From: Eledone cirrhosa
Lineage: Eukaryota
Reading direction: 5' to 3'
NCBI GenBank assembly: GCA_964016885.1
Contig: OZ024740.1
Location: 79,298,001-79,362,000, forward strand
DNA: 64,000 bases
Part shown: positions 1,977-63,780 of the stretch, one piece after another
Layout: the number at the start of each line of letters is the position of its first letter
How positions within the stretch are numbered: the stretch's first letter is position 1
The notes under the pieces: generated by a model
Seen by the model: the letters and a program-made list of their open reading frames with translations, nothing else
Told to the model about the DNA's origin: nothing
Database searches by the model: none
Position numbers and translations under genes: made by a program

Positions 1977-2183
1977 TATATATACATACACATACATATA
2001 CATACACATATATATACATATATACATACACATATATATACATATATATATATATATATATATATATAGTTTTGCGAGGTTTTTGATATGAAATCGTGTG
2101 TCGAAACAAATATTGTTATACTTGGGGAGGGTCATATTTGTGTAATATTGCCAGAATTAATAACAGAACACATTCACTGTTTG

Positions 2184-3489
2184 GGCCACATATTCAAGTT
2201 CAACGAGAAGATCTACACCCAAAATGAGGGAGCAGCCATTGGCGTCAGCATAGCTGGTGAGTTTGCCAACCTTTTTATGGTATGCTGGGAAAGGAGACTT
2301 AAAGATCTCCTTGATGAGAGCTCCATAGACCTCATCATGTACTCTCGTTACGTAGACGATATCAATATAGTAATAAGAACATCCCCACAAGAGAGCATTA
2401 ACAAGTTTGATTTAGAACGTAGCACAATGGAAAGCATCCAGCAGATAGCTAATTCCATACACCAGAGTATAACTGTAACTATCGACTACCCTTCCAAACA
2501 CCCTAACAATAGACTACCTGTATTAGACACGGAACTCTGGATTAACACTATAGACGAGAGAGCCCAAATTCTCCACTCACACTATGCTAAACCCATGGCC
2601 TCCAAACACCTAAAAAACTCAGCAATGCTAAGTTTAATATTCTGATCGCAGACTTGGTACGAGTGATGAAGAACGTGTCCCGCATGTGCGACCCAACAGA
2701 AATGGAAAGACACATCCAAAACTTCATCAACCGCGTGCAGTTCTCTGGCTACAACCAAAGAGACAGAATCAGAATATACGAAGGAGCCACGGAGAAGTAT
2801 AAGACCCTCATAGAACTGGACATGAAATGAATTTGCCCATTATACAGGAGCAAATCATGGAATAGCTTAGATAGGGCTAGACATAAGATAGGGAAAGCAA
2901 CCTCATGGTACGACAACCAGAGATACCAGAGTGACATGTTTGTGGACGCTACCCCTGGAGGGAAATTAGCTAACCAGTGTGGAAAGGCCCTGAGAAAGAC
3001 CCACTTAAAGATTAAGGTGGTAGAAAAGCCAGGAACCACCATAAAATCCCTGATCAGCAAAACCTACCCTTTTAAGAAAACCCACTGTACTAATAGGAAA
3101 TGTATCATATGTAATTTAAACCCCGGATAAACTGTAAAACTAGAAACCTAGTCTATAGCATAAGATGTACAGAGGGTACTTGCAGAAACATGACAACAAC
3201 ATACATAGGCGAGACAGCGCGTAGCATAGGTGAAAGGATAGACCAACACTGAGGGGAACTAAAAGGACGAAAAAACGGTTCAGTACTATACGAACATGCC
3301 AGACAACAACATGACGGTAACATAGACAACATAGAAATTAGAATAATATCTAAACATAGAAATGACCCAGCAGATAGGCAAATCAGAGAGGCCAGTGAAA
3401 TAGAACTTAGAAGGCCAAGGCTAAACAGAAAGAATGAGTGGAATAACAACAACACCCAAACGAACAACAGTGACCTAAGAGAAGCATAA
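2184..3489 (+). pseudogene. Disrupted PLE RT (domain 4 to thumb) plus GIY-YIG endonuclease
   Basis: ORF pieces 2088-2645 and 2936-3130 plus downstream frame; stops and frameshifts relative to sibling ORF 43977-44678. Confidence 0.9.
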
Positions 3490-3751
3490 ATAAATAAATA
3501 AATAAATAGATAAATAAATAAATACATACACAAGCACAATAACAACAAACACATATAACACACACACTAGTAAAGATAGAATACATTAACCAATACACAG
3601 TCACCCAAACACGAACACACATAAAACAAAACACTATACACACACGCAAACGCATGCGCAAAGAAGACAAAAAAATAAACAAATAAATAAATATATAAAC
3701 AGACTAAATAAAGATGGCGTAGACATACGATGCAACGGGAGGAAACAATAG

Positions 3752-3795
3752 CACCACTGATGATGTTGCAGATGTGCAACGAAAGAACTTTGATA
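3752..3795 (+). ncRNA. Hammerhead ribozyme (family B)
   Basis: cca-CTGATGA-t gttgca gatg tgcaac-GAAA-gaac-TT-tga; stem I weak. Confidence 0.72.
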
Positions 3796-4074
3796 GACTA
3801 TATATATGTGTTTGTGTCTATATTGTATCTGTATATTTTGACCGTTGGTCAGTCAATGGCAACATTGAGGACTGAATAAATTAAATTAACCGATATAAAA
3901 GACTCAGAAGCGAAAAGCGAAAACCAACCAAACAGTGAGTGTGTTCTGTTATTAATTCTGGCAATATTACACAAATATGACCCTCCCTATATATATATAT
4001 ATATATATATATATATATATATATATATATATATATATATATATATATATATATACATATATATATACATATAT

Positions 4075-4682
4075 ATGGTGGCTGCCAACTCGTTTTCGAG
4101 TACGGCCACTACTTTATATCCATGTAGGAGAACCCCTACCGATGCGCTGAACGAGTGTGACTTTTTAGTCCAGCCAGCGACTTGAAAACTCTGGTACAAA
4201 CACTACACTTGTGACACTTATTGACACATAGTGCTGGGCCCATGTTACCATGTGATGACAAGTGCAGAGAGATCTCCAGATATAAAGCAATGCCTGTGCC
4301 GTGAAGCTTTTATAGTGAGCAAAGGCACTCCACAAAGCCAGTCACACTCTATTAACCAAGATGATATTTACCAAAAAGAAGAACAAGTCAACATCATTGG
4401 ATACCATCAGGGTTGCAGGTGTTATATCAGAGTTTTCCTTCTCCTAGAATTCTGCATTGACAAAGGCTAAGGGGTCATCTCTCCCGGTGATTTTGGATGG
4501 CCATTGACTCTTAAGAGATCCTTTGCCCTTTGACAGGTTTAGTTTTTAGTCCGGCAGGATGTCCAAAGTCACCCTCCTCACCAAGAAACCTTGGTGGGGT
4601 TGCCAGTTTAGTCGCCAACGACCCGACCATGAGACAGGTTGTACTGGGATACATGTTACCAGTAGCACCAAGTGGTGACCAT
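4075..4682 (-). mobile_element. Non-autonomous element resembling an RTE-LINE 5' region
   Basis: Diverged second copy at 6185-6700; minus strand has ctaggagaaggaaaactctgat, typical of RTE 5' UTRs; inside (TA)n. Confidence 0.55.
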
Positions 4683-61914: not shown

Positions 61915-63193
61915 GCTAAGGTCACAAGAGCTGTTGAAGAACTCAAATGTGGCAAAGCCGGTGAGGAAGATGAAATCCGGTCCCAGATGCTTGAATAGAG
62001 AAGGTATTCTCTGGCTGACTTGTGTGTGCTGGGTGGCCTGGATCTCTATAAAGGTACCTAAGCAATGGCAATCAAGTTTCAAAGAGGGAGACAAGAGTGA
62101 TTGTTCCAATTACAGAGGGATCTCCTTGTTAAGCCTCTCCGGTAAAGTGCTTGCTAAGTGTCTGGAAAAGAGATGCAGGGAGATGTCGAGTCCAAGCTAG
62201 CTGATGAACAGTGTGGTTTTCGCTCCGGACGCAGCACAGCCGACCAAATATTCATACTGCGGCAGGTATTCGAGAAATCGTGGGAGTATTGCTAAGAGGT
62301 ATGCCTTTTCAAGGTTGACAAAACAAGAGTTTTGTCAACCTTGAAAAGGCGTATGACCGCGTTCCTCGGGATCTGTTGTGGAAGGTTGTGCAGGGGTATG
62401 GAATCGATGGTCAGCTTTGCAGACGACATGGTGTTACTTAAATCGACAGAAGGTGATCACCAAGTCTGATGCCGAGTGCTGTATAGTTGGAATGAAAATC
62501 AGTGCTGCGAAAACTGAGACACTCATCCTTTCAAGAAAACCTGCACGGTGTACTCTACATGTGAATGGAGTTCCACTGAAGTTGGTAGAGAAGTTCAAGT
62601 ATCTCGGGGCCGTGTTCACGACTGATGGAAAACAGGAGGCTGAATTAAGTACAAGAATTACACCAGCTTCAGCATTCAGGAATCAGAAAAAGTGAGGTAG
62701 ACGTAAAAGCAAAACTCGCTATCTTTAATTTGGTATTCGTGTTAACCCTTACTTATGGTCATGAAACTTGGGTAATGATCGAAAGAATACGACCGCGAAT
62801 ACAAGCGGTCGAAATAGGGTTCTTCCGAAGGAACTTTAGAGTGTGTAGCTCAGAGATCAGAGAGTCACCACTTCTCCGAATTGAGAGATCGCAGCTCCGA
62901 TACTATGTGTATGTGTTTAGAATGTCGCAGGAAAGAATCTCTGGACAGATTTTACGGGCAAAAACTAACTGGTAGGAGACACAGGGATAGACCCCGAGCA
63001 AGATGGTTGGATAACATCCATGAGCTTGGCTGATCACGGTTGGGGATCCAGCTGGATCAGTTGGAGACGGTTGCTTCTGACAGGACGCGCTGGAGGGAGT
63101 GTTTGAGGACTTTTCCCTCAAGATCTTCTCAGTAATATGTGGGTGAAGAAGAAGAAGAAGAAGAAGAAGAAGAAGAAGAAGAAGAAGAAGAAG
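61915..63193 (+). pseudogene. Decayed RTE-clade LINE RT with (GAA)n tail
   Basis: CSNYRGISLLS, EQCGFRSGRSTADQIF, LEKAYDRVPR, FADD, FKYLG, LTYGHETW; many stops and deletions. Confidence 0.9.
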
Positions 63194-63339
63194 GGGGAGG
63201 AAGAGGTGGAGGAGGAGGAGGAGGAAGAGTATGGTATTTTGGAAAAGGCTAGTTTTAGTATATTCTTGTTTTACTGGCTGACTGGACACATACGCGCTTT
63301 TTCTCCAAAGATTTTTTTTCTGTTTGTTCCTCTTCTCAC

Positions 63340-63495
63340 TCTCTAGCTTTCTATTTCTTTTATTTCTCATTCATCATCTAATGAAGGACTAGTGTCCGAA
63401 ACGTTAAGACTCTTTTGCTACTATATCAAGCGTTAATCTGATATATATCTTCATTACATTGTATTGTTTGCTTTGTTATTTTCGTTTACTTTTCA
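63340..63495 (+). mobile_element. Diverged family J pLTR; HHR 63374-63409 (G5A)
   Basis: CTAATGA-a ggac tagt gtcc-GAAA-cg-TT-aaga; aligns with 37260-37398. Confidence 0.72.
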
Positions 63496-63596
63496 CACAC
63501 ACATGCACACACACATGCACACACACACACACACACACACACACACACATATATATATATATATATGTGTGTGTGTGTGTGTGTGTGTGTGTGTGT

Positions 63597-63780
63597 AATA
63601 GGAAAAGAGTCCGGCCGTTTCGACAGCTAGATCTGAACAGTTCAGATCTAGCTGTCGAAACGGCCGGAGCTCAGCCATCGGGATCCTGACTCTTTTCCTA
63701 TTACCCACTCTACTACCCTAAGTATTGAGTACTATGGCGCGTTATGGTCCATCTGGTTCCTTACCACACCTTCTTTGTTA
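63597..63780. mobile_element. Family E-related fold-back with tail
   Basis: Palindrome ccggccgtttcgacagctagatctgaac-a-gttcagatctagctgtcgaaacggccgg followed by the family E tail. Confidence 0.85.

Follow-up and report, generated by a model that had tools for sequence, protein, structure and literature searches.

We analyzed insertions of Penelope-like elements (PLEs) in a 64,000-nucleotide stretch of the Eledone cirrhosa genome (contig OZ024740.1:79298001-79362000, assembly GCA_964016885.1, genome size 3.0 Gb; hereafter, the window) and in related copies elsewhere in the same assembly. In each family, insertion ends fall at two sites or tight clusters, a near one and a far one, and arms ending there are referred to as short-ended and long-ended, respectively. 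Of the 186 two-armed insertions, 183 combined one short-ended with one long-ended arm, three had two long-ended arms, and none had two short-ended arms. We consider it probable that both nicked target strands prime complementary DNA (cDNA) within one coupled complex, one at a near and the other at a far internal start site.

The window has a GC content of 36.7% and is rich in (TA)n. Nine families (A, B, C, D, E, F, K, M, and X) were sampled beyond it, and families J and L are known from the window alone. Genome-wide copies were located with exact patterns placed just upstream of the short site. These core patterns yielded 35,562 matches for D, 26,999 for A, 26,972 for E, 9,755 for F, 6,757 for B, 2,932 for M, 113 for X, 82 for K, and 27,873 for C (including copies within another repeat), while the reversed-pattern control gave 0 matches for every family counted genome-wide. 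Because the C core sits inside another abundant repeat, the match count and strand bias of this family are inflated. Numerous copies of this embedding repeat lie within the first 3 Mb of C1 (loci L241, L245-L247, L253, and L261). Every adjacent minus-then-plus pair of matches at most 5 kb apart in the fetched loci was defined as a pair, and 80 stretches with such pairs were picked from the match listings and fetched for the pair counts.

The first-pass annotation of the window had proposed two end sites, one per orientation, and this was borne out in 146 of 148 head-to-head pairs and in 37 of 38 further two-armed copies. Among families A to F, 125 of 127 pairs were short plus long (121 scored automatically, three by eye, and one, which we take to be a single insertion, with an internal pseudo-long terminal repeat (pLTR) and a short outer end), and two were truly long plus long. 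All 21 pairs of K, M, and X were short plus long, including two window copies and two with an internal unit. Outside the window, one end of each type was found in 144 of 146 pairs (P ~1e-40 against free choice). A further 116 arms had no partner detected by pattern; the opposite end type was recovered for 34 of them automatically and for three by eye, and one insertion was long plus long. One D pair of loci among these partnerless arms resembles a duplication. Two near-identical D insertions lying 226 kb apart (loci L087 and L089), with a TA expansion within the tail, are probably a segmental duplication.

Near and far ends occurred in similar numbers among copies taken in listing order (e.g., in 30 copies each, 14 short to 16 long in both A and E, and 17 to 13 in M), and a few copies read past the end sites into the open reading frame (ORF) or the next unit. 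Because read-through copies (D, M, A, F, and C) run on from the long end into the beginning of the ORF, the outer ends of the insertions are the 3' sides of the elements. Family B has two long sites ~14 nt apart, D has two short sub-sites 4 nt apart, and single copies stop a few bases early. The tail is ~45-113 nt long. In read-through copies, inspection by eye showed the end sites to have 2-5 nt of sequence in phase with TA, and at least four TA units lie close to both arms in 122 of 127 pairs. A longer TA-like stretch in the middle of the D tail served as an end in 0 of 84 arm reads inspected by eye; therefore, pairing alone does not choose the end sites. A base difference that seemed to separate long from short D arms proved to be an artefact of query choice, being absent from all 84 arm reads of an unbiased set.

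Both arms copy the same region, overlapping by up to more than 1 kb. In 94 pairs, the short-ended arm was the longer one in 31, the long-ended arm in 35, and the two were about equal in 28; the excess was greater than 100 nt in 20 pairs for the short-ended and in 16 for the long-ended arm. Endonuclease (EN) and reverse transcriptase (RT) sequence can sit on either arm, some copies have over 1 kb of it on both arms, and short-ended arms may exceed 2 kb. A derivation of long arms solely from the upstream pLTR was rejected, as ORF sequence occurs on both arm types. Long arms confined to the tail occur in 13 copies of the sample and in five of the window. Long arms stopped near the short site in 5 of 13 cases, a sample too small to use.

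The arms of one insertion share a source. Divergence between arms was 1.7-2.7% within an insertion and 2.3-6.7% between insertions, being lower within in 57 of 62 comparisons. The length class was common to both arms in E (P=2e-4), F (P=7e-4), and D (P=0.05), and a subfamily base was common to both F arms in 21 of 22 pairs. Arm lengths had been described as varying freely, which does not hold for D, E, and F: arms pile up at 52-62, 41-52, and 150-151 nt upstream of the anchor end, respectively, and for E, both arms stop at or before a common 5' boundary in 23 of 28 pairs, as they do for F in 12 of 22. The boundaries match what we take to be initiator-like motifs, and in C what is presumably a TATA box lies 30 nt before a similar site. 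A motif that we assume to be YY1-like occurs in families A and B near a cluster of A arm 5' ends (e.g., window position 45830). The pile-ups likely arise by run-off at the RNA 5' end, where transcription starts; for Penelope, an internal promoter with an initiator is described in the available text of PMC2377424. At non-palindromic junctions, a G, scored by eye, precedes the 5' pile-up site in 6 of 12 D and 8 of 13 F cases, several of them templatable by the partner arm, and gives only a hint of a cap-derived base.

Junctions were scored in 92 of the 127 A to F pairs, excluding 19 C pairs with unresolved junctions and 16 pairs with large gaps or reference ends. Inserted bases (1-65), several of them copied from nearby sequence, were present in 45 junctions; nine were blunt, nine had a 1-nt overlap, 27 had overlaps of 2-6 nt, and two had longer ones. 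Among junctions with 0-15 nt of overlap, 27 of 45 shared at least 2 nt, compared with 23% in simulated blunt joins (P=9e-8), and the same was true of 15 of 28 asymmetric junctions considered alone (P=4e-4). The suggestion that the cDNAs are joined by microhomology is thus supported by an enrichment at junctions that have no insertion, and its overlaps of 2-5 nt apply to about one-third of all junctions; as a rule it is not supported, 45 of 92 junctions carrying inserted bases. This mixture resembles microhomology-mediated end joining with templated insertions. Junction parameters were distinct in all 108 pairs of A, B, D, E, and F, as anticipated for independent junctions rather than a fixed unit of a miniature inverted-repeat transposable element (MITE).

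From the two sites, the one-of-each rule, the arm overlap, the mixed junctions, and the shared source features of the arms, we infer a mechanism with the following steps. The GIY-YIG domain would nick both strands of the palindromic (TA)n, and each target 3' end would pair, over 2-5 nt, with a site that the ribonucleoprotein has positioned. Each cDNA would extend toward the RNA 5' end and either stop early or run off at the pLTR transcription start, after which microhomology, or else end-joining with inserted bases, would unite the two cDNA ends. The tail would correspond to the RNA stretch between the two start sites, and short hairpins, as copies of the RNA leader, would be dead ends. There is an in vitro precedent for cutting and extension of both strands from two internal start sites in the available part of PMC11167929. 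The choice between one RNA copied twice with strand displacement and two RNAs in an asymmetric dimer is roughly evenly balanced. More specifically, an asymmetric dimer may copy a single RNA twice, with one target end priming near and the other priming far and displacing the first cDNA, so that each event carried to completion gives a short arm and a long arm; we offer this route only tentatively.

Several points weigh against coupled priming by both strands. The evidence consists throughout of finished insertions, with no RNA or intermediate seen, and the pattern-listed samples of A to F and M all lie within the first 62 Mb of a single contig. The two-armed design is frequent, not universal: ~62 of the 116 partnerless arms had no second arm, and 15 lay at a locus edge where they could not be judged. 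The three long plus long insertions do exist, and the 16 of 108 non-C pairs that have large gaps or extend beyond the references may not be single events. The likeness of the arms could also reflect gene conversion or the dominance of a single source locus at a time. Finally, the portion of PMC11167929 available to us describes no strand difference in start site, as well as priming without target homology.

It is unlikely that the far site alone primes and that the near site is where the second end is captured or trimmed via pairing with (TA)n. Such capture would likewise produce one end of each type, and short sites often match the TA phase better, D having two short sub-sites. However, short-ended arms exist for which no second arm was found, some of them longer than 2 kb; the better TA-like stretch in the D tail goes unused; and direct in vitro observation of a related element showed two start sites (PMC11167929, available part).

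The joint 5' boundary of the arms bears on another possibility, in which the target ends prime in different repeat units of one tandem transcript, as in L1-type twin priming, and each RNA base is copied once. Partial tandems exist (D in locus L103, M, K, and X), and a tandem RNA could provide ORF sequence upstream of both arms. Yet such a 5' end occurs only once in a tandem RNA. Since both arms often stop at the same boundary (23 of 28 E and 12 of 22 F pairs), one-time copying of a single tandem transcript is quite unlikely; it also offers no reason for the one-of-each rule. In L1 twin priming as reportedly described by Ostertag and Kazazian in 2001, priming occurs at both target ends and the cDNAs are united head-to-head through microhomology, but the second primer sits at variable internal sites and the pieces barely overlap. 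The likeness to twin priming that had been drawn for the window therefore does not extend to the L1 type, since the elements studied here have two fixed sites and arms that share one region, by up to more than 1 kb.

In the published reading (PMC3846280 and PMC8557442, in the parts available), one cDNA folds back and copies itself, and the endonuclease resolves the ends at two staggered sites, giving a one-sided tail. The equal-length arms in 28 of 94 pairs suit such self-priming, as do some junctions that form symmetric palindromes and overlap by an even number of nucleotides (2, 4, or 6). A snap-back copy must lie within the first arm, yet either arm can exceed the other by more than 100 nt (the short-ended one in 20 of 94 pairs, the long-ended one in 16), 13 copies have little or no arm overlap, and microhomology is enriched at asymmetric junctions too (15 of 28, P=4e-4). 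Because either arm can be longer and some long arms are tail-only, fold-back of one cDNA does not account for both patterns; for asymmetric copies it is contradicted by the arm-length and overlap data, and as a general account we regard it as very improbable. Mobilization of the hairpins as MITEs by a DNA transposase, which might be suggested by the many copies of short inverted-repeat units within TA, is hardly credible and is refuted for the tested families, where the ends are unequal rather than equal terminal inverted repeats of a fixed unit, all 108 junctions are distinct, and longer copies extend into RT/GIY-YIG frames.

We next consider what these elements are. The families had been described as about 10 unrelated ones; instead, they are canonical endonuclease-bearing (EN+) PLEs of two lineages plus two ORF-less derivatives (K and X). 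A and B share 61% amino-acid identity, whereas D, E, F, and M show 33-48% mutual identity and only weak similarity to A and B, and the two lineages have dissimilar pLTR DNA. The following EN+ PLE hallmarks were found: RT followed by a C-terminal GIY-YIG endonuclease, in frames upstream of the arms of longer copies; a pLTR or partial tandem; an inverted 5'-truncated copy; and a tail. In the window element used as the reference protein, GIY-YIG passes the Pfam cut-off and RVT_1 (E=3e-6) falls under it. A full-length D copy contains an unbroken frame of 712 aa, which gave zero matches in Pfam and PDB; against the ESM Atlas, it scored 0.96-0.99 to clusters with HTH_animal, GIY-YIG, and RVT_1. The A, B, E, F, and M proteins are homologous to the reference element and D, and one C read-through copy enters an N-terminal homolog (E=6e-9). 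We presume that D, E, F, M, and C are of Poseidon type. A and B carry a cysteine motif ahead of GIY-YIG, like that described for Neptune in the available text of PMC8557442.

The tandem units of K and X (~468 and ~622 nt) contain no long ORF, and both are non-autonomous derivatives rather than autonomous members. K repeats at an exact spacing of ~468 nt in at least 10 loci (L361/L362 and L370-L372 among them), as would be expected from a circular or tandem template. A motif scan identified putative hammerhead ribozymes: C, F, and X have canonical cores, and that of D is a one-base variant; inspection by eye added putative minimal forms in A, B, J, and M and variant cores in E and L, with K ambiguous. 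Rfam listed no hammerhead and returned only low-complexity microRNA matches.

All insertions listed for the window by the first-pass annotation are present at their places, give or take a few bases, and consist of arms set head-to-head and flanked by runs of TA or mixed microsatellites. Together with two additions, they are as follows.

2068-3987, family B: left long-ended arm (to 2184); right arm with RT/EN, ending ~12 nt before the usual short site
4783-5672, family B: left long-ended arm; right short-ended arm with EN
15200-15487, family F fold-back: left short, right long; canonical hammerhead core, putative, at 15299 (+)
17055-17121, family D: 46-nt tail-only long arm and a very short short-ended piece
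17138-17237, family J fold-back: window only
19688-19734, family A, minimal insertion: tail-only long arm and ~24-nt short arm, zero overlap
21628-21815, family C fold-back: left short, right long
23386-25732 (+), further Penelope-like element with RT and GIY-YIG frames: served as the reference protein
29240-29422, family D fold-back: left long, right short
29477-31296, family E, long insertion: left short, right long
31333-31738, family K, ORF-less unit of ~468 nt: left long, right short
33563-33826, family L: left short, right long; window only
36950-37209, family F: left tail-bearing arm; right short arm beginning at the 5' pile-up site; putative hammerhead core at 37110 (+)
37537-37660, family F, three-piece insertion: outer ends short and long
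38369-38858, family M fold-back: left long, right short; minimal hammerhead-like motif near 38707 (by eye)
42302-42997, family X, ORF-less unit of ~622 nt: left long, right short; canonical hammerhead core, putative, at 42748 (+)
43714-45190, family B: left arm ending at the second long site; right short-ended arm with EN (ORF 43947-44678)
45207-45297, family D: left short arm, right tail-only fragment
45380-46142, family A: left short-ended arm (inverted), right long-ended arm; minimal hammerhead-like motif near 45891 (by eye)
53085-53265, family E fold-back: left long, right short
54479-54688, family D fold-back: left long, right short
56940-57309, family D, absent from the first-pass list: appears long plus long; outer ends short (56940) and long (57309); internal pLTR-ORF junction
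60199-60290, family D: left short arm with hammerhead-like motif (60269, minus strand), right tail fragment
63597-63778, family E variant fold-back: left short (adjoining a GT run), right long

The (TA)n setting claimed for these insertions applies to most of them, but arms of those at 15200, 33563, and 63597 adjoin a (GT)n run. The two-ended layout is likewise general, except that B at 2068 stops ~12 nt short of the usual short site and that J at 17138 has no long end visible in (TA)n. The copies at 19688, 17055, 45207, 60199, and 37537 are not hairpins, their long arms being tail-only.

Families stand back to back, parted by (TA)n alone, at window positions 31296-31333, 45190-45380, and 17121-17138. 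It seems that each insertion leaves fresh targets for later ones, and the density of the window is high relative to blind samples because insertions leave new (TA)n targets; a blind 200-kb sample contained 17 matches, too few copies for use. A near full-length Penelope-like element occupies 21968-26872, with direct pLTR pieces at 21968-22076 and 26764-26872 and a 455-aa frame preceding RT; no inverted arm was seen at this element. An additional PLE family, not in the first-pass list, lies at 53280-56843 and 40573-42278; its inverted arms are large, and a minimal hammerhead-like motif sits close to its 3' end. At 7078-8862, 13653-13906, 38026-38341, and 50518-50709, there is a short multi-copy element that likewise occurs in inverted arrangements; it is very common in the fetched loci.

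Published work already covers the inverted pLTR with a one-sided tail, the preference for (TA)n, and, from in vitro experiments, two internal RT start sites together with extension of both strands. EN+ PLE insertions are described with an inverted 5'-truncated copy, a one-sided tail of 30-40 bp, and a microsatellite bias (PMC8557442 and PMC3846280, available parts). Compared with the accounts in the accessible text of these papers and PMC2377424, the Eledone insertions share head-to-head arms of variable length, a tail at one end, partial tandems, a pLTR hammerhead (putative here), the microsatellite bias ((TA)n being named for Naiads), and probably an internal promoter. They differ in tail length (45-113 versus 30-40 nt), in the regularity of the one-sided tail, which is optional or frequent there and present in 183 of 186 insertions here, and in their non-overlapping arms, which contradict the self-priming proposed there.

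Poseidon of Anolis carolinensis, studied in vitro (PMC11167929, available part), likewise has two internal RT start sites that bound the tail, nicking and extension of both strands, an AT-rich target, and a predicted dimer. That text reports no site coupling, whereas the sites here are coupled, with 2-5 nt TA-phase matches. K and X resemble animal non-LTR retrozymes (PMC7229834 and bioRxiv 10.64898/2026.07.22.740005, in the parts available) in being ORF-less, tandem, PLE-like units, X having a canonical type I hammerhead core; unlike those, K and X, known here from DNA alone, lie scattered through (TA)n, have an inverted arm, and follow the same end rule. The literature searched contained no statement of one-end-per-site coupling, which subscription papers, figures, or supplements may hold, and no report of arms without any overlap or of two overlapping cDNAs joined at their 5' ends.

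The elements belong to a known kind, and the added value lies in a quantified pairing rule that makes an open mechanism testable; the origin of PLE inverted ends, tails, and microsatellite insertions is called open in the available text of PMC8557442. A near-strict rule that extends across two lineages and two ORF-less derivatives narrows the possible mechanisms and speaks against self-priming. For a direct test, the genome supplies exact sites, copies in the tens of thousands, and an ORF that is naturally unbroken. For annotation, such hairpins are neither MITEs nor microRNA genes. If true, the asymmetric-dimer route would represent a general integration chemistry unlike the target-primed reverse transcription of long interspersed nuclear elements and would account together for the tail, the inverted pLTR, and the microsatellite hairpins.

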